A DNA stretch of 64,000 bases, taken from NCBI GenBank assembly GCA_947588905.1, contig CANQBB010000001.1, positions 6,789 through 70,788 of the forward strand. Reading direction: 5' to 3'. How positions within the stretch are numbered: the stretch's first letter is position 1; the number at the start of each line of letters is the position of its first letter. Of the stretch, positions 7,987 to 57,700 are shown piece by piece. The position numbers and the translations under genes were made by a program. Origin of the DNA: an uncultured Clostridia bacterium. GTDB lineage: Bacteria > Bacillota > Clostridia > TANB77 > UBA1234. The notes below the pieces were generated by a model. It was not told the origin of the DNA. It saw nothing but the letters and a program-made list of their open reading frames with translations, and ran no database searches.

Positions 7987-8337
7987 CTATTTCAATTTAT
8001 TGATAATATCTTCTTTATTCAATCCAAATTTATATAATTCATTAAATTCTTTTTGAATATTTTGAATTTTATTTTCAATAGTATTATTTGTAATTTGTTT
8101 TGTATCGTCTGCAATAAATGTTCCTTTTGTAGATATAGTAATTATTGCCCCTCTATTTTCAAGTTCTTCATAAGCTTTCTTAACTGTATTTGGATTTATT
8201 CCAAGATTAGTTGCAAGCTCTCTTATAGACCAAATTTGTTCTTTTGGTTTTAAAACTCCTAATGCAATAAGCCTTTCAAATTGATTTACAATCTGCTCAT
8301 AAATAGGAGTTCTATTTTGATAATCTAAAACAATCAT
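7987..8337 (-). CDS. GntR-family (YtrA-like) transcriptional regulator
   Basis: wHTH motif IWSIRELATNLGINPNTVKKAYEELENRG. 116 aa. It lies directly downstream of the ABC ATPase and permease genes. Confidence 0.7.
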   Translation of the reverse strand: MIVLDYQNRTPIYEQIVNQFERLIALGVLKPKEQIWSIRELATNLGINPNTVKKAYEELENRGAIITISTKGTFIADDTKQITNNTIENKIQNIQKEFNELYKFGLNKEDIINKLK

Positions 8338-8349
8338 CTTTATAACCTC

Positions 8350-10314
8350 CTATTCTAATATTTCGCCACTTGATGCAATAGTTTCAGTAATTGGAATATC
8401 AATGGTTTCAGTGATAGGCATACCTGTTGGGTAATCATAATAATATTTTTCATCATTTCCATAATAATCTTTTATTTCTTCTGGATGTTCATTATAAATT
8501 TTTAATAAAACATCTATTAATCCTTGAGTATTATTTGTATAAAAGTTTAATACACTACCTCCAGTTATATAAGCATATTCTTTTGTATTAGTAACTTCTG
8601 CTTCATAATTTTGTCTAATAAAATCACAAATCTCACGTCTTCCAACATATTCTAATGCACCTATATTATTTTTTATAATATCTGGCACAGACATATTGTA
8701 GAAAAGTATTGTATTTATCCATCGCATATCTTCATATTCTATAGATTCAAAAGCTCTCTCATTAAATTTTTTTGCTGATAGTTTAAATATATTTTCGCTT
8801 AAATTTATTGGATATTCAGCAATTTTTAATTCATGTTTTCTATATTCATAAACAATAATTTTTCTATATCCATAATTATCTTGATTAGATAAATTTTTTA
8901 ATTCATCATAAGTAGTTTCTTTTAATACTCTATTAAGTTCATTTTTTAATTCTTTTTCTTCTTCTTTAGAAAATTCTATTCCACTATATCTAGACCCTAA
9001 AATGATTTTAGCACTATCACTAATAGTTGTTTTATTGATAATTACATCTGTTAGCTCATTTAGCTTTTCATTTCTCATATGAACATAAGACTTGTAAGAT
9101 GAACCATTGAATCTAATTATTCTTATTTTAACTCCTGTTCTATCATTTCTTGAATCATAATTATATTCTGATGACATACTTCCTAATAATTCTTTAATTT
9201 CTTTACTATCCTTTGTTTCAAAATTAAATAATCCATTTGAATCTTCAACCCTTAATTCAGCAATTGAATCACTATCAAAATTTTTACTTATTCCATCATC
9301 AATAGATATGAATAGCATGTATGCACCATATATCGCAATTACTGAGAAAATTAATCCAACTATGTTATCTCTAATTTTCATTCTCTTATTTGTAATTAAA
9401 TCATATAAGAAATAATAAATAGTTATAATTGCAAGAACAATCATGATAATACTAAAATCAGAATCCATTCCAATTCCAACTAAATATGCAACAAATGGTA
9501 CTAGAGTTAATCCTTTTACAACAAAATGAACTATTTTATTTTCAAAAGATTCTCCTGCAACTTCCATTTTTCTCTTATTAAATGCTATTAATCCAATTAT
9601 AAAATATATAATTGAAAGTCCTATCATCTTATACATTGATATTTCATTAAATTCATATTTACCATCATTAGCAACTAAAAATGGTGCCGTATAATTTAAA
9701 CTTTCATCAACTTCTATTACTCTTGAACCGTTTACTAAAACATCATAATCATTACTGCTATTATACAATAATACAAAGAAATGTGTAAAAGGAACTATAA
9801 ATGTTATAAGTAAAGTAAGTGCAATTTGTGTTAAAACATTTCCAGATAAACTCATTGCTAAATTAGCTATTGTAAAAACAAAAATATATGCAATAGTCTG
9901 GAAAATTAAAATATCTAATGCCATACTAACAAAAATCGTACATTCGGTTATCATTCCTAACAGTATTGACAAAAGAAATGTTACTAATTGAAGTAAAACA
10001 ATTAAAACAATTCCACCAATTGTATTAGTGATGAAAATACACTTTCTACTAATCGGCATTGAACCCATAAAATCTACACTTGTTTTCTTAAATACATATC
10101 CAAATAAACAAAATGAAAAAATAAATGGAATTATATATAATCCAAAAATATTAATTAATCCTAGTTCTGCAAACTCAAATACTTCTTGCCCTGCTGATAT
10201 TATCATTAAACTTGTAAAAAGAGGAACTATTATAAAAAATAATATAAGTGCCATTTTAGACTTTTTAAAATTTTGAAGCAAATACTTAAAATTAAACAAT
10301 TTCGTTAAACTCAT
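8350..10314 (-). CDS. ABC-2-type permease with a large extracytoplasmic C-terminal domain
   Basis: Six TM helices in the N-terminal half, then a roughly 330-aa soluble domain. The exact start is uncertain: the ORF-track start at 10353 overlaps the ATPase gene, and a start at MSLTKL (10314) is more plausible. Confidence 0.5.
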   Translation of the reverse strand: MSLTKLFNFKYLLQNFKKSKMALILFFIIVPLFTSLMIISAGQEVFEFAELGLINIFGLYIIPFIFSFCLFGYVFKKTSVDFMGSMPISRKCIFITNTIGGIVLIVLLQLVTFLLSILLGMITECTIFVSMALDILIFQTIAYIFVFTIANLAMSLSGNVLTQIALTLLITFIVPFTHFFVLLYNSSNDYDVLVNGSRVIEVDESLNYTAPFLVANDGKYEFNEISMYKMIGLSIIYFIIGLIAFNKRKMEVAGESFENKIVHFVVKGLTLVPFVAYLVGIGMDSDFSIIMIVLAIITIYYFLYDLITNKRMKIRDNIVGLIFSVIAIYGAYMLFISIDDGISKNFDSDSIAELRVEDSNGLFNFETKDSKEIKELLGSMSSEYNYDSRNDRTGVKIRIIRFNGSSYKSYVHMRNEKLNELTDVIINKTTISDSAKIILGSRYSGIEFSKEEEKELKNELNRVLKETTYDELKNLSNQDNYGYRKIIVYEYRKHELKIAEYPINLSENIFKLSAKKFNERAFESIEYEDMRWINTILFYNMSVPDIIKNNIGALEYVGRREICDFIRQNYEAEVTNTKEYAYITGGSVLNFYTNNTQGLIDVLLKIYNEHPEEIKDYYGNDEKYYYDYPTGMPITETIDIPITETIASSGEILE

Positions 10315-41367: not shown

Positions 41368-41509
41368 AAAAATCACCTCCAATTGTAAATTATTTTATTT
41401 CATAAAATGAAACGTGTCAATATATTTTTAAAATATAAGCACATAATATGAAAAAAGTATGTTTCTTTCATCATATGAAAGTTATAATAGGTTTAAGGAG
41501 GGTCATACC

Positions 41510-41851
41510 ATGGATAGTAAAAGTATTTTAAGTCAAAGGATGAAAAAACTTAGAAAAGAATTAGGATATACACAAGAATATGTTGCAAAGAAATTAAATA
41601 TTTCAATAGCTGCTTTATCTCGCTATGAAACTGGAGCATTTGAACCTAAGTCAGTTGATTTAATAGTTGACTTAGCTTTACTTTATAAAGTTTCAACTGA
41701 TTATTTGCTTGGAAAAACAGATGCAAGAAATCCAGAAATGGATTTTGATAAATTAGATATTGGTTTGTCTAGTAAAACATATGATTCTTTAACAGAATCT
41801 CAAAAAAATAAAATTAGAAAAATTATAGCCATACTAGTTGCAGAAGAATAA
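41510..41851 (+). CDS. XRE-family (cI-like) HTH transcriptional repressor
   Basis: AAGGAGGG RBS. HTH LGYTQEYVAKKLNISIAALSRYETG. Confidence 0.7.
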   Translation: MDSKSILSQRMKKLRKELGYTQEYVAKKLNISIAALSRYETGAFEPKSVDLIVDLALLYKVSTDYLLGKTDARNPEMDFDKLDIGLSSKTYDSLTESQKNKIRKIIAILVAEE

Positions 41852-42004
41852 AACAATATTAAATAGATTTTCAAGAGTTGCTCCTCTTTTTAGCAGTTTT
41901 TTACAAAAATTTATTATTTTTTAATAAGCTTGATATCATCATGCAAATATTATATATTAAGAAAAATAAAGTGGGTCAAATATTTGAATAACAAGGAGAA
42001 AATA

Positions 42005-42944
42005 ATGGAAGAAAATAAAAATGAAATTATAATTTTTGAAAATCAAAATGTAAAACTAGAAGTTAATATGAAAGATGAAACCGTTTGGCTTACTCAAGAA
42101 CAGATGTCTGAATTATTCGATAGAGACCAATCAGTTATATCAAGACATATAAAAAATATATTTAAAGAAAATGAATTAGATGAAAAAAGCAATATGCAAA
42201 AAATGCAAATTCCAAATTCTGACAAATTAGTTGCACTTTATACTCTTGATGTAATCATTTCTGTTGGCTATCGTGTTAAATCACAAAATGGTGTTATTTT
42301 TAGAAAATGGGCTACTTCTATTTTAAAAGATTATATGTTAAAAGGTTATGCTGCTAACCAAAAACGTTTAGCTTATCTTGAAAAAACAATTAAACTAATT
42401 GATATTGCAAACAGAATAGATGATCGTCTGCAAAGCGAAGATGCAAAAGAAATATTAAAAGTAATAGGTACATATTCAAAGGCTTTAAACTTATTAGATG
42501 CCTATGACCATGGCACATTAAATAAATTAAATGGCAATTTAAATGATAAAATGATAACTTATGAAGAATGTATTGATATAATTAAAAAACTTCGATTTAG
42601 TCAAGAAAGTACACTATTTGCTATTGAAAGAGATTTTGGATTACAATCAATCATAAATGACATTTATCAATCTTTTAATCGGTGAATATCTATATAAAAG
42701 TGTAGAAGAAAAAGGAGCAAACTTTTTATATTTAATTGTAAAAAATCATGTATTTGCAGATGGAAATAAACGTATTGCAGCTACTTTATTTATTTTCTTT
42801 TTAAACTTTTATAATATTCTATATAAAAATAACAAACAAGTAATTGATAGCAATACATTAGTAGCATTAACACTTCTAATTGCAGAATCTAAACCACAAG
42901 AAAAAGATGTAATAATAGATTTAATCATGAACTTTTTAATTTAA
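42005..42944 (+). pseudogene. RhuM-family virulence protein with a C-terminal Fic/Doc domain, split by a frameshift near 42657-42685
   Basis: RhuM-like N-terminus (ENQNVKLEVNMKDETVWLTQEQMSELFDRDQSVISRHIKNIF). Fic motif HVFADGNKR lies in the overlapping +1-frame ORF 42657-42944. Confidence 0.5.
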
Positions 42945-43063: not shown

Positions 43064-43140
<77 letters not shown>

Positions 43141-43275
43141 ATGCCGATAACACAAAATATAATACCATCATTTAAACTAATTGTCAATATTATTCCAAAC
43201 ATTTCTTACTAAATAAAATCTGTCTCTTCTTTATATAAAATATACTAAAAAAGAGTGGCAAAAGCCACTCTTTTT

Positions 43276-43989
43276 TTATCCTGCAGCAAGTGCAGTCCAT
43301 GGGATACATCCCACATATTCGCTCTTAGCAGCAATGAAACACGAGGCCCACGGTTTGCTGTTTGTATCAAACATATAACACCATACATCAAATGTGTCGC
43401 CCTTATGTGCAACACCAATTTGTGCTGAATCTTTACTTGCTTCGTCAAATATTGCAACCTCATCAGCAGTAACAACAACTCGTCCAGTCAATTTAGGTAG
43501 TTTGTTTGAATTCTTTATATCTCTAATAGAAATATATCCAATCTCAAAAGCTCCATCTTTTTGATACATGATTTCTGCCCAAAGTTCGCCATCATCAGAC
43601 GGATAAAGTCCCATTACTTTAATCTGTTTTCCTGCTGGAATTTCGCTAACGATTTCCGAATCGGACAATGCAAACATTCTAACCTTTGCATCGTTTTCTA
43701 TGGTTACTGTAATCGTTGCAAGAACCCAATCTGATGGATCATCAAAATCCCACACAGAAGCATCATCTTCAAACTCAGGCTCAAACTCATCCATCCAGTC
43801 AAAGCCTTCATCCCAACCACCAGATTCGCCAGTCCAATCTACTTCTCCATTCCAGATAGCCTCTTCAATGACCATGCCTTCTCCGTTCCATGAAAGGTCA
43901 TCTGTGAAAAACCCTTCTGCCAAGCAGGAAACCGAAAGAACGACCATGAGCACGACAGTCATGAGCACAGTTGCCAGCTTCTTAATCAT
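43276..43989 (-). CDS. Secreted protein with an acidic Trp-rich region and SH3b-like domains, within the high-GC insert
   Basis: Signal peptide MIKKLATVLMTVVLMVVLSVSCLA. W/D/E-rich repeats. SH3b-like GELWAEIMYQKDGAFEIGYISIRDI. GGGAGGG RBS. Confidence 0.55.
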   Translation of the reverse strand: MIKKLATVLMTVVLMVVLSVSCLAEGFFTDDLSWNGEGMVIEEAIWNGEVDWTGESGGWDEGFDWMDEFEPEFEDDASVWDFDDPSDWVLATITVTIENDAKVRMFALSDSEIVSEIPAGKQIKVMGLYPSDDGELWAEIMYQKDGAFEIGYISIRDIKNSNKLPKLTGRVVVTADEVAIFDEASKDSAQIGVAHKGDTFDVWCYMFDTNSKPWASCFIAAKSEYVGCIPWTALAAG

Positions 43990-44138
43990 GAAACTAACCC
44001 TCCCAATTTTTTATTGCCAAATTATTGTATCATAGTTGTTTTGTTATGTCAACTGTATTTTGATAAGCTCTACCTCAAAAAAATAATTTTCTAACTATAC
44101 AAAAAAGAGGGGGCGGTTTTCTCACCGCCCCCAAGAAA

Positions 44139-44879
44139 CTAGTCTACTTTCTCAAGATACAGGCACGAGACGAACCCATGCGTATCCCAGCCACTTTCGA
44201 CGTAGCCCCAGAGCCTTCCATCAGAGCTAAAGTAGTAGCCACTAATGGTAAGCTCCGTGCCATTTACGATAGTGCCAATGTCACGCGAGGTTATAAGAGG
44301 CTCCTCGCGCAAGTTCAAACGGCCTCCAATCACCCGCATATGGACTCCAATTTCAGGCAGAGCATAGTTGAAGTCCAGGTTCTGGAGATACTTCATGGAC
44401 ACATATCCATGAGCATAGTTGCAGTCAATTTCTGCCCAAATGCGTCCATCGGTCGTCGGATAGAAACCCAGCACATCAATGTTCGTACCGTTCTCCAGCA
44501 CGAACATCACGTCACTCTCAATGTCGGGTTTCTGCCTTACATTAACGTCACCACCAGTTACCTGCATGGGAACGACTACGGTTTGTACATCTTCGTCAGC
44601 ATACTCTGACTCGAAAGCCAGGTATTTGTCGGAGATGTACCCTTTCTGACCGCAGAAATCAATCCGCGCCCAAGCACGTCCATCCCAGGTGTACATGAAG
44701 TCTTCCACGTACACTTCGGTATCCGGAGGCAGGGTTCCAATCACTTCCGCATTGATAGCGGAATCCGACCTAACATTAACGTTGCCCGTTGTCCAGGCAA
44801 CTTCAGCGAAAGCCGTCAATCCCATCATCAAAATCGCACACACCACTGCAAGCACCATCGTCATCCGAAGCTTTTTCAT
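44139..44879 (-). CDS. Secreted protein with three bacterial SH3 (SH3b) repeats, within the high-GC insert
   Basis: ATG at 44879 with GGAGG RBS. Signal peptide. Three repeats of ...NVR...G..V.V...W..I...G..GY(I/V)S.KYL. Flanked by GC-rich terminator hairpins at 44101-44140 and 43246-43275. Confidence 0.55.
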   Translation of the reverse strand: MKKLRMTMVLAVVCAILMMGLTAFAEVAWTTGNVNVRSDSAINAEVIGTLPPDTEVYVEDFMYTWDGRAWARIDFCGQKGYISDKYLAFESEYADEDVQTVVVPMQVTGGDVNVRQKPDIESDVMFVLENGTNIDVLGFYPTTDGRIWAEIDCNYAHGYVSMKYLQNLDFNYALPEIGVHMRVIGGRLNLREEPLITSRDIGTIVNGTELTISGYYFSSDGRLWGYVESGWDTHGFVSCLYLEKVD

Positions 44880-44954
44880 TATAAAACCTCCTTTAATCGT
44901 CACTCTTAGTTTCCCAAATATTATTATACCACATTTTGTAAACTAGCTCAACTA

Positions 44955-54724: not shown

Positions 54725-57700
54725 TTACTGTAGTCTTCTTATTACCAATTCATTATCCTCATTATACTCTGCTCTAAATATTAGCTCGCTTGATTCTGAG
54801 AATAATTTTCCTGCTCCTGTTGTTTCCTCTAATCTAGTCTTTGCATAATATGTTGTATTTGGTATTAAGCCATTATATGTATCAGTTGTTTGCCATGCTC
54901 TATAAGTTGCTTCATTTTCTGCTCGTATTGCATATTTAATGCTTACGCTTTCTGCTCCTGAATATTTTTGATTACATACTAATCTCAATTCAAATGTTGC
55001 TAATAATTCTATATCATCTGAAGCAACACTACTAATATTACCAGCTTCATCTTTTAACCATACATATACTGTCTTATTTCCATTTTCTACTATCAACTCA
55101 TGCTTTGAATATTCTTTATATGGCTTCCATTCACTGTATAGAGGTTCTCTCTTTTGATTGCTAATATACATATATTTTACATCATCAACATTGCTCTTAA
55201 TATGTACTACTACTTCTTCATCATTTGTTTTAGCAGCATTATCATTTATTTCAATTATAGCTATGCCTGGTGCTGATTTATCTATAATTATATGTTTTGT
55301 AACAATCGTATAATTTCCAGCAGCATCTGTAACTTTGAAATATACTGTTCTATCCATTGTTGTATCAAGTATTGTAAATCCTTTTCTATATGCTTGATTT
55401 TGTTCCAAATTGTTTGGAGTCCAATCAGTAGCTTTAGAACCCTCTTCAAGTTTTATATTCTTTATGTACATAGAACCTTCTTCTTGTAGCTTATGACCAT
55501 ATAAGTATAATTCTGTTACTTTTCTTTCATCAAGTTCATCAGCAGTTGTGAAAGTATAACTCTTTCTTACCCAATGTCCAACTTCTTCATCTGCTACTAT
55601 TAAGTTTTTAGAGCCGTTCTGGAAATCACTATTTTTTCCTCCAACTAAATAATATTTCAATCCAGTTGTTATTCCACACTCTGCTGTATCAGCATATATA
55701 TCAAATGATAATGTATATGTTGTTCCTCCTGTGATAACTCCAGCATCAATGTTTTGTTTTGCATATAACTCTCTGTTTTCCAAATCAAACTCAGAGTTTT
55801 TATTTATCAAAGCAAATACATTTGAACTAAATCTATTCTTATCTATATGTCCATGATATCCTAGAGTTGGCGATTTTACACTAGAATTATATCCTAACCA
55901 ATCGTTTGCCATTTCTCTACCGTTTAATAATGTATTCCAGTTATAATCTCTTTCTGATAATTTATAGAAATCTCCATTTTTCAATAAGTTATTATTATTT
56001 GTAGTTATTATTGATTCCCAATCCTTATTGTTCAAAGAATATTCTATATTTGTTACTCCAGAAAGTGTATCAATTCCAGTTACTACTATACTTACATCAT
56101 CACCTGTTCTTGTGCCTTCAACATAACCACTTAAGTCTACATCTACTATAGGCTTATCTAAATCGATTGTATTTACTCTTATTGTTCTTATTCTTTCAAC
56201 CCCATTTGTAGACCTTACATATACAGTATATAATCCATTTGCATTTACATTAAATGTTCTTCCTGTAAATATTGTTCCATCTTCTCTGAAGTAATCTACA
56301 GTCTTCACACCAGAAGCATACTTTGTTACTTCAATATCATTTCTAATTTCTCCTTCATTTGAGAATACAAACCATTGTAGTCCATCAATTTCCATATTTC
56401 CAGCTTCAGATGAGTATCCCCAATCAGGCATTGCACTTTCAAATTTAGCATTGTCTGTAATATCTTCATTTAATTTTATTAAGTAATAAACATGGTGTTC
56501 ATTATTATCATCAGATATACTTAATTCTTTTCCAACCATAGATATGCTATATTCTTTTGTATGACTTTCGTTATATAGTTTTGGATTTTCAAATACTTTC
56601 ATTCCTGCACTATTACTACTTCTATAGTTAGATGATACTAATATATATGTTCCTGATTTTAATCCTTTCAAGAAAGCTTTACCATCTTGCATTCCATGTA
56701 ATGTTTCATTATTCTCACTCGCAATCTTTTCCATTCTCCATGCTTTTGAACCATGGTAAGCAGATAAGATTTCTGACATAGTTCCTTCACTAGTAGTAAC
56801 ACTATTATCAGCTTTAGAACGAGTGATTATACTTGGGTCTGAATCATCGTAAATGCTTCCTTTATCGTAAGCAATAGCATTAACTGTAGTTTCTTGAGCT
56901 AATGACACTCCAGCATTACTTAATTCCAATTCTACATTATCCACAATTATTGGGTCAGTTCTGTTAAGAATGCTTGTTCCATCTGTATTAGTAACATATG
57001 TCCATAGATAATATGTACCTTTTGAACCATATTTTGGCCAAACTATCTCATCATTTTCTGCCTCTTCTGTTATGTCTTTCTCAGTTATTCCAGAATCTTT
57101 TGTTGTTAATAGATATTTAATTTTATCTACACTACCTTCATGTGTAGTTACTGAAACTCTTATTCCAGTATAAATATCATTCATGTTACAAGCAAAATAT
57201 AATTTATCAATCTTAATTGGAGCACCAGATAATTCTTCATTCCAACTAATTTTTACTTTAACATATTCAACATTTAATCCTGAACCATCATATCCATTCC
57301 AATTTGTATAAGTCCAACCTTCTTCTGCAGCAGATATACTTAATGTATCCATTGTATGACCATTGTCTGCTTCAACTGAAATAAAGTTTTTATCATAATA
57401 TTCAGCATCCACACTAAAGTCTCTCATTTCATCATCACCTGATGCCATGTAATTTAATCCCATTGACCATTCTGTACCTGCTACAATGAACCATTTTTCT
57501 GCATATTGTTCTAGACCTGTTAAATTCAATGCTCCTGTTTCGTCAATAGTTGCTCCACCATATAATTTCCAGCCACTCCATTTAGCATTACTTGTTGATA
57601 TTTCTGTTGTTACCACATTTATATTTTCCTCTACACTTATAGTTCTAGTTACTGTCATAACAACATTTCCATATCTATCTTTTAATGTATATACAACAAG

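Follow-up and report, generated by a model that had tools for sequence, protein, structure and literature searches.

The stretch of DNA considered here, hereafter the window, is 64,000 nucleotides long, belongs to an uncultured Clostridia bacterium (contig CANQBB010000001.1, positions 6,789 to 70,788 of the forward strand) and has an overall GC content of 28%. It carries two neighbouring GC-rich genes for small, apparently exported proteins made of SH3b modules: one of 246 aa with three modules (SH3x3), located directly downstream of the pyrimidine-nucleoside phosphorylase gene (pdp), and a second one of 237 aa, which lies towards a tRNA-Arg gene. The original prediction, made from the letters alone, took this pair for a recent horizontal acquisition from a higher-GC donor. 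The analysis described here indicates that SH3x3 is probably a long-standing, fast-evolving resident just downstream of pdp and not a recent foreign insert, and that its GC-rich codons may be kept for the sake of a folded mRNA. The features of the two genes are as follows; contigs and loci from other assemblies are given below by their labels (L001 and so on).

44923..44951, minus strand: SH3x3 promoter, TTGAGC-17 nt-TATAAT with TG extension (consensus scan, 10/12 + TG)
44887..44893, minus strand: SH3x3 Shine-Dalgarno sequence AAGGAGG, 7 nt 5' of the ATG at 44879 (read from the sequence)
44139..44879, minus strand: SH3x3 gene, 246 aa, signal peptide at about aa 1-25 (AFA/E cleavage)
SH3x3 protein, about aa 28-90, 105-167 and 180-244: SH3b modules (Pfam SH3_3, AlphaFold)
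44109..44132, minus strand: SH3x3 intrinsic terminator, 9-bp stem with 8 G-C pairs, then a T-run (terminator scan)
44024..44052, minus strand: second-gene promoter, TTGACA-17 nt-TACAAT with TG extension (consensus scan, 11/12 + TG)
43998..44004, minus strand: second-gene Shine-Dalgarno sequence GGGAGGG (read from the sequence)
43276..43989, minus strand: second gene, 237 aa, signal peptide at about aa 1-24 (CLA/E cleavage)
Second protein, about aa 25-92: acidic Trp-rich region; about aa 93-158 and 168-236: diverged SH3b modules
43247..43276, minus strand: second-gene intrinsic terminator, 13-bp stem then a T-run, starting at the stop codon (terminator scan and inverted repeat I15, 100% complementary)

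The SH3x3 promoter begins 4 nt beyond the stop codon of pdp, and translation is assigned to the ATG at 44879, which has AAGGAGG in front of it, the GTG at 44903 being a wrong start. The GC-rich hairpins had been proposed as terminators, and both of them (44132-44109 and 43276-43247) are indeed intrinsic-terminator-like on the minus strand. The SH3x3 terminator is also found, its hairpin region differing by one substitution and a gap of 2 nt, in L001, a contig of this species from a separate, independent ENA assembly (pdp protein 99.7% identical) that includes the GC-rich SH3x3 gene and the start of the second gene. SH3x3 and the second gene are two independent single-gene transcription units; both have a TG-extended promoter close to the sigma-A-type consensus, a strong ribosome-binding site and an intrinsic terminator of their own. 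A hidden non-coding RNA in the region was ruled out because, in a scan with the covariance models of Rfam 15, the tRNA alone passes and the rest stays far below the gathering scores.

Regarding base composition, GC content in sliding segments of 300 nt climbs from 0.22-0.28 to 0.37-0.51 across approximately 43100-44900 and is about 0.31 beyond, and in all the remaining 1-kb bins of the window it does not exceed 0.34. SH3x3 has a GC content of 0.50, distributed over the three codon positions (GC1/GC2/GC3) as 0.54/0.38/0.58, and the second gene reaches 0.42 with a GC3 of 0.34. GC3 is 0.12-0.19 in the genes around them and mostly 0.10-0.19 in the window; compared with 42 open reading frames (ORFs) of the window (mean 0.15, SD 0.064, one spurious GC-rich ORF over tRNA genes counted in), SH3x3 stands at z = 6.5 and the second gene at z = 2.9. 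The intergenic DNA between the two genes has a GC content of 0.22-0.29 when the terminator stems are removed, and the GC excess ends at the borders of the coding sequences (CDSs). Because the inter-gene DNA keeps the composition of the host, there are two GC-rich coding sequences rather than one continuous 1.7-kb GC-rich block. The atypical composition, for which a check by sliding-window GC and codon usage had been suggested, was confirmed for both genes, and the compositional jump is real, but the 48-55% GC attributed to a 1.7-kb insert (against a background of about 28%) does not hold for its whole length, as about 50% is reached by SH3x3 alone.

The codon usage of SH3x3 is extreme. It contains no AGA and no TTA, which make up 81% of the Arg codons and 57% of the Leu codons of the host, respectively; only 13% of its third positions are A, and it favours CTG, GTG, ACC, ACG and CGG, the rarest codons in the host (within their amino-acid families, CTG accounts for 1.1%, CGG for 0.4% and ACC plus ACG for 7.7%). 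Several simple explanations were tried and rejected. Translational selection for host-optimal codons is ruled out since the G-ending CTG, GTG, ACG and CGG are the host's rarest, and amino-acid composition is ruled out because the excess sits at third positions. An assembly chimera is ruled out as well, given that the independent assembly L001 has the same GC-rich gene in the same context and that the ortholog occurs in 4 metagenome assemblies.

The description of the products as two exported SH3b-repeat proteins has been borne out by profile matches, paralogy and signal peptides read from the sequence. SH3x3 matches the Pfam family SH3_3 (PF08239) in three stretches with 80 bits (gathering score 27 bits). 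The second protein scores 22.9 bits, below that threshold; its two C-terminal repeats resemble repeats 2-3 of SH3x3 (27% identity, BLASTP E 2e-13), so that it belongs to the SH3_3 family by paralogy with SH3x3 and not by profile score. Both proteins show, by eye, a Lys-rich n-region, a hydrophobic core and an AxA-type cleavage motif. The AlphaFold model of SH3x3 (pLDDT 82) consists of three all-beta modules on flexible linkers which fill the mature protein. Foldseek searches with this model gave 9a7d, 4krt, 8alu and 7qfg as top matches and SH3b matches with a probability of 1.0, with a single-domain rmsd of 1.7 Å to 9ovi and 2kt8; the best ones comprise Bacillus subtilis YrvJ, the wall-binding domain of the endolysin from the Clostridium perfringens phage phiSM101 and the teichoic-acid-binding domain of Lactobacillus SlpA, together with N-terminal domains of NlpC/P60 enzymes. 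In the second protein, the first SH3b module has given way to a Trp-rich, acidic region some 68 residues long, in agreement with the acidic Trp-rich repeat region that had been noticed from the sequence. Its model is of low confidence (pLDDT 50, below 50 in the N-terminal region), too low for a fold search.

A catalytic domain was sought in both proteins with Pfam, NCBIfam and PHROGs, and the SH3 part alone was matched, as had been anticipated. An amidase, peptidase or muramidase domain was not found, and by these profiles the two proteins are not lysin-type enzymes. Most likely, both of them bind peptidoglycan or a wall polymer non-covalently and without enzymatic activity of their own, the ligand presumably residing in the cell wall. 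Together they would form a small, putative family of stand-alone SH3b wall binders, seen so far in this clade alone, for which scaffold, shield against lysins and adhesin are candidate roles.

The distribution of these genes was analysed by homolog searches that together cover about 15 billion proteins. Word-indexed searches of 5.8 billion proteins recovered 4 homologs of SH3x3 and 2 of the second protein, and exact-sequence look-ups gave no match for either of them. An exhaustive profile search of 1.84 billion representatives yielded many long multi-SH3b proteins and about 12 small ones with the same architecture, none of them more than 44% identical. The nearest homolog of SH3x3 is a syntenic ortholog from an AT-rich relative (42-44% identity), and the small family of 240-270 aa was found in AT-rich uncultured Clostridia only, the contexts of the representatives P0011-P0023 having been left out. 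A 14-sequence SH3 profile proved too diverse for locus searches and a 4-sequence profile was used; its metagenome matches were strains of the L010 species only, and those in viral contigs were generic SH3 matches. A scan of the GTDB species representatives with the SH3 profile detected no relative, and a pdp scan of the same set succeeded. The literature searched contains no account of this SH3 gene family.

An ortholog of SH3x3 lies directly downstream of pdp in L002, L005, L008, L009, L010 and four further strains of the L010 species. In L009 it is the second (L009b) of two SH3 genes that follow pdp. All these relatives are uncultured animal-gut Clostridia of 28-35% GC whose pdp proteins are 83-86% identical to that of the window. 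Of the seven species-level lineages that are closest, six (the window species, L002, L005, L008, L009 and L010) have the gene at this site, as do all strains seen. The junction between pdp and the SH3 gene has also been kept: the -35 box comes right after the pdp stop codon and is followed by a 17-nt spacer, a TG-extended -10 box, a strong ribosome-binding site and the ATG. This promoter layout and its position are identical in L001, L002, L005 and L010, the spacer motif AGTTTAC..GTGGTA is common to the window, L002 and L009b, and equivalent strong ribosome-binding sites are present in all orthologs. The identities between the SH3 proteins (28-53%) roughly follow the rank of the pdp identities, and relatives whose pdp is at most 79% identical have different genes after it. 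The second gene is sporadic, being found in this species and one other lineage, where its homolog (P0006, 56% identical) sits at another locus, beside an SH3-VanW gene on a short contig. As a separate observation, the N-termini of the L010 (11374-12138) and L008 (11456-12028) orthologs are lipobox-like and Cys-rich (TLACEECGNYY; FACECECTCSNCTC), and these versions, unlike the window protein, may be lipid-anchored, or else metal-binding or disulfide-forming; the L008 ortholog has two SH3b modules only.

The age of this arrangement can be judged from the synonymous sites. Between species, four-fold sites match at chance level in pdp and SH3 genes alike (window versus L002: 51 of 122 in pdp, with 45 expected, and 10 of 38 in the SH3 gene, with 10.3 expected), which means that these sites are saturated. 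Since they are saturated, GC3 reflects the pressure acting in each lineage, and the compositional signal of one old transfer should therefore have decayed. GC3 is nevertheless 0.58 in the window gene, 0.60 in the L035 member, 0.545 in L009b, 0.43 in the L034 member, 0.42 in L002, 0.39 in L008, 0.37 in the L010 species, 0.30 in L009a and 0.24 in L005. It is raised in 9 of the 10 family genes examined, at two different loci, over backgrounds of 0.13-0.25, and the L034 and L035 members, which sit at another locus, still have these high values. In the second-gene family GC3 is 0.34 and 0.24. All ten genomic contexts examined are AT-rich. As synteny is preserved between species with saturated synonymous sites, some force must be actively keeping the codons of SH3x3 GC-rich.

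A candidate for this pressure comes from the folding of the transcript, which was evaluated throughout as predicted minimum free energy (MFE) in comparison with 20-60 shuffled sequences. The SH3x3 transcript (811 nt) has an MFE of -323.6 kcal/mol, versus -258 +/- 6 for dinucleotide shuffles (z -10.3); for the L001 allele, which is about 7% diverged, z is -8.2. When synonymous codons are shuffled, a procedure that keeps the protein and the codon usage, the CDS of SH3x3 reaches z values of -5.1, -7.2 and -6.2 in three runs and -5.9 with shuffling in blocks of 40 codons. Such shuffling costs 44-53 kcal/mol, an excess of about 0.06 kcal/mol per nt, and typical control genes show 0.03 at most. The other 34 window genes that served as controls gave a z of -0.31 +/- 1.14 (minimum -3.2). 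Viral contigs were unsuitable as mid-GC controls, as they are AT-rich, and 28 genes of Escherichia coli K-12 with GC3 0.5-0.65 were used, with a z of -0.91 +/- 1.26 (minimum -2.6). As these controls stay near z -0.9, an ordinary gene from a genome with 50% GC would not resemble SH3x3.

In the rest of the family, the synonymous-shuffle z is -7.0 for L009b, -6.3 for the L035 member, -3.2 for L010, -2.9 for L034, -1.3 for L009a, -1.2 for L002, -0.3 for L008 and +0.06 for L005. The excess folding follows GC3 within the family (Spearman rho -0.77, p 0.016, n=9 with the window gene counted). In L035, a methyltransferase gene that is GC-rich as well has a z of -5.2. Along the SH3x3 CDS the excess is spread out and there is none in the first 120 nt, which fits the general requirement for an open initiation region (PMC2816680). 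The antisense strands of the window gene and the L035 member are much less over-folded than the sense strands (z -2.1 and -1.6, respectively). This sense-strand bias, seen in two of three genes, points mainly to RNA, where G-U pairs count. Another observation concerns the predicted 5' end of the SH3x3 transcript (44907-44915, minus strand; GGGAAACUA), which is complementary to the letters at the stop codon of the gene (44133-44141, minus strand; UAGUUUCUU); in the folds predicted for the window allele and for the L001 allele alike, this pairing encloses the entire coding region as one domain.

Within species, SH3x3 evolves faster than its neighbour. Divergence between the window and L001 is 7% in SH3x3 and 2.2% in pdp, and within the L010 species the corresponding figures reach 1.8-2.9% and 0.07-0.67% (L023 versus L024, 1.83% and 0.07%), so that the divergence of the SH3 gene exceeds that of pdp next to it 3 to 25 times. 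Codon changes are mostly synonymous (35 synonymous and 9 non-synonymous in one comparison, 10 and 2 in the other), so that purifying selection acts on the SH3x3 protein. When the window is compared with L001, the synonymous changes are found grouped where each repeat begins, at homologous places (44283-44343, 44498-44568 and 44758-44778), one tract having 16 synonymous changes in 18 codons with zero amino-acid change; within each strain, repeats 1 and 2 share their codon variants (GTT/AGG versus GTG/CGG). These tracts may mark short recombination or conversion events. A mosaic pdp marking a recombination breakpoint was considered and ruled out, as every pair shows lower conservation in the C-terminal part of pdp. 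The L001 copy of SH3x3 contains a 41-bp frameshifting deletion (at 1464, corresponding to 44442-44482 of the window) in a contig with only 1.9x coverage, and may be a pseudogene or an assembly error.

The reading that best joins these results, and which we hold with moderate confidence, is that both genes are autonomous, strongly expressed genes for wall binders, that SH3x3 is an old resident, and that its GC-rich codons are kept for a folded mRNA. The data show the gene anatomy, the SH3b fold, the conserved synteny and promoter, the synonymous saturation, the raised GC3 of the family and a predicted folding excess that scales with it; that selection on folding is the cause, and stability the benefit, is an inference. 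In mechanistic terms, the SH3x3 CDS would be selected for an extensively base-paired mRNA, and the choice of GC-rich codons would be a consequence of the need to pair, held far from the mutational equilibrium of the genome. Greater mRNA stability would be the benefit: the pay-off is probably a transcript that is long-lived, RNase-resistant or tuned for translation. The strong promoters and ribosome-binding sites are predicted to lead to high expression of the exported, non-catalytic SH3b proteins. The same logic is invoked for rRNA and tRNA genes, which are GC-rich in AT-rich genomes.

Several observations weigh against this reading. The energies behind it are predictions; L009b is almost as over-folded in antisense (z -5.9) as in sense; the second gene shows no excess folding by synonymous shuffle (z -0.2 and -0.35), and in L002 and L008, with raised GC3 (0.42 and 0.39), the excess is small. 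Folding therefore cannot account for all the GC excess. Of the base pairs in which the window differs from L001, 13 persist and 15 are lost, and RNAalifold on three orthologs gives a weak consensus of -95 kcal/mol with a covariation term of +4.7; a conserved RNA fold finds no support in this pair analysis or in the consensus, which lacks positive covariation, and selection could act on general foldedness alone and on no defined structure. The folding might also come from a mutational process that generates local hairpins. Neither is strong excess folding unique to SH3 genes, as one gene (approximately 8174-9556) in the related viral contigs L026-L033 has a z of -3.9 to -5.7. Finally, the sister species L018, the closest species representative, lacks a 3.1-kb block comprising SH3x3, the second gene, the tRNA-Arg gene, RhuM and the Fic fragment, which shows that genes can be lost or gained here.

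This absence is among the arguments for the original prediction of a foreign block from a donor of about 50% GC, inserted recently beside the tRNA-Arg gene and not yet ameliorated, since L018 is syntenic with the window on both sides and keeps the order Xre / 208-aa / sigma-factor downstream. The codon usage of SH3x3, extreme for the host (0 AGA and 0 TTA, with many CTG, ACG, ACC and GTG), the patchy distribution of the second gene and the variability of the area downstream of pdp among relatives, with other GC-rich orphan ORFs present, go in the same direction. Against it stand the same position and conserved promoter in five other species at saturated synonymous divergence, the ten AT-rich contexts, the host-like intergenic DNA, and the fact that native genes of a genome with 50% GC (E. 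coli) lack such excess folding. The proposed search for a donor lineage found none: phage and plasmid collections returned nothing with blastn or tblastn, phages, plasmids and viral contigs offered nothing beyond generic SH3 similarity, no homolog in a GC-richer genome appeared among the contexts examined, and among about 15 billion proteins none is closer than the 42-44% identical homologs from AT-rich relatives. No integrase or transposase is encoded among the neighbours Xre, RhuM, Fic fragment, pdp and ComEA, and a search for flanking direct repeats, attachment sites or a duplicated tRNA 3' end gave nothing convincing, only short repeats at chance level. Recent transfer is thus largely refuted for SH3x3, and as an account of the whole block it seems highly improbable. 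It had also been asked whether related strains lack the segment, uniform clade-wide presence with equally atypical GC being named as the mark of an ancient gene pair; SH3x3 is present in all strains seen and largely conforms to this picture, but its GC3 is unequal between species and L018 is without the block.

Two further explanations accept a resident gene. One of them, which we regard as unlikely, makes the locus a recombination hot spot where alleles of the SH3 surface protein are often exchanged or converted between strains and species, with GC-biased conversion or import from relatives of somewhat higher GC raising their GC content and the extra folding arising as a side effect. It draws on the 3- to 25-fold higher divergence of the SH3 gene relative to pdp within species, on the mostly synonymous differences clustered in short tracts, and on the elevated GC3 found for recombining genes in many bacteria (PMC4450053). 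Biased conversion should lift intergenic GC too, yet this stays at 0.22-0.29. The shift caused by GC-biased conversion in bacteria is usually a few percent, compared with 40 points here, and recombination offers no reason for a mostly sense-specific folding excess that scales with GC3. Part of the faster divergence is expected in any case, as a GC-rich gene under AT-biased mutation should have, according to our estimate, about twice the synonymous rate. The other explanation is control by rare codons, in which slow or minor-tRNA-gated translation would gate expression or pace the export and folding, during translation, of the beta-rich SH3 modules. Most SH3x3 codons are rare in the host and the GC-ending codon trait recurs across the family, as this proposal requires, but it predicts no pairing beyond codon usage, yet codon-preserving shuffles lose those 44-53 kcal/mol, and the strong promoters and ribosome-binding sites speak for high and not throttled expression. 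We consider it very unlikely.

If selection on mRNA folding is accepted as the cause, some vertically inherited genes in this AT-rich gut Clostridia clade may be under strong selection for global mRNA foldedness, a generalisation that we put forward only tentatively. Were it true, such selection would drive GC3 from about 0.15 to about 0.6 and give rise to islands that mimic horizontal transfer, the small secreted SH3b genes being an example and the L035 methyltransferase possibly another. Composition is commonly taken as evidence of transfer and seems to fail for the most atypical gene of the window. The link with folding is a testable alternative cause of GC heterogeneity within genomes, and it advises caution in composition-based island calling in AT-rich genomes. 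As proteins, the SH3b products are unremarkable; what is of interest is a compositional island with the behaviour of a vertically inherited gene under an RNA-level constraint, which we infer by computation from metagenome-assembled genomes.

The neighbourhood of the two genes is chromosomal and centred on the cell envelope, with Ddl, a Mur ligase, an SLH protein, a PBP5-type carboxypeptidase, YpeB and ComEA in addition to pdp. The tRNA-Arg gene was located next to the GC-rich genes, as had been described, with these features:

43064..43140, minus strand: tRNA-Arg(TCT) (ARAGORN, Rfam)
43187-43159, minus strand: tRNA-Arg promoter (promoter scan)
43050-43015, minus strand: tRNA-Arg terminator (terminator scan)

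In L010 and L011 this tRNA gene is found at the opposite flank of the PBP5 gene, and the remaining loci scanned lack it. It is a neighbour with its own promoter and terminator, and its status as an integration site is unsupported. Further along, an Xre gene (41459-41851), a RhuM-family ORF (41930-42685, plus strand) and a Fic ORF make up a small accessory module, whose RhuM and Fic ORFs are missing in L018. The RhuM ORF overlaps an ORF of 95 aa (42657-42944, plus strand) that matches the Fic/DOC profile at its C-terminal end only, and the two look like a single gene broken by a frameshift. In L018 (9959-11309), pdp is split into two ORFs by an apparent frameshift and lies 144 bp from the Xre homolog. 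At the other end of the window, an ORF of 3069 aa with DUF285 (Mycoplasma-type) repeats (54725-63934, minus strand) would encode a giant surface protein. Other GC-rich ORFs (GC3 0.42-0.67), mostly without a Pfam match, are scattered in the AT-rich relatives, often near SH3 genes:

L035: 6449-7309, 4854-5336 and 1096-1752
L002: 5962-6498
L010: 12432-12722
L034: 1284-1643

Compared with known systems, the proteins share their domain family and beads-on-a-string layout with the wall-binding SH3b tandems of lysins and S-layer proteins (YrvJ, the phiSM101 endolysin Psm and SlpA), and they are likewise exported and encoded within a cell-envelope gene neighbourhood. SH3x3 differs from them in having neither a catalytic nor an S-layer domain, its mature form being SH3b modules throughout. 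EntA, EntB, EntC, EntD and EntFM of the Bacillus cereus group are secreted proteins with N-terminal SH3_3 repeats, as here, but they carry a C-terminal domain that SH3x3 is without; with the NCBIfam models for Ent proteins (NF040670 and related), SH3x3 scores at most 35.6 bits through its SH3 part, against cut-offs of 560-780 bits, and by these profiles it is not a member of the Ent/EntFM family.

At the level of the locus, the likeness to tRNA-linked genomic islands consists of the atypical GC and codons, the adjacent tRNA gene and the presence or absence with respect to one sister species. On the other hand, the locus lacks an integrase, a duplicated tRNA 3' end and flanking repeats, relatives have the tRNA gene elsewhere, SH3x3 is syntenic with a conserved promoter, and the DNA between the genes is host-like; three of the four defining tests of such an island (distribution, mobility/repeats and donor) speak against it, and composition speaks for it. 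GC-rich structural RNA genes of AT-rich genomes combine a locally raised GC content with a need to pair, and the same combination is seen in SH3x3. The literature searched contains no syntenic gene family that combines a GC3 shift of 40 points with z values of -5 to -7. The closest parallel at the RNA level is the weak genome-wide selection for local mRNA structure known from bacterial CDSs, in which native sequences are more structured than codon-shuffled ones and structure is lowered at the start codon (PMC2816680), as in SH3x3. The magnitude in SH3x3 is much larger (z -5 to -7 versus about -0.3 to -0.9), and here the folding is linked to a 40-point GC3 shift in one gene family, with no conserved fold.

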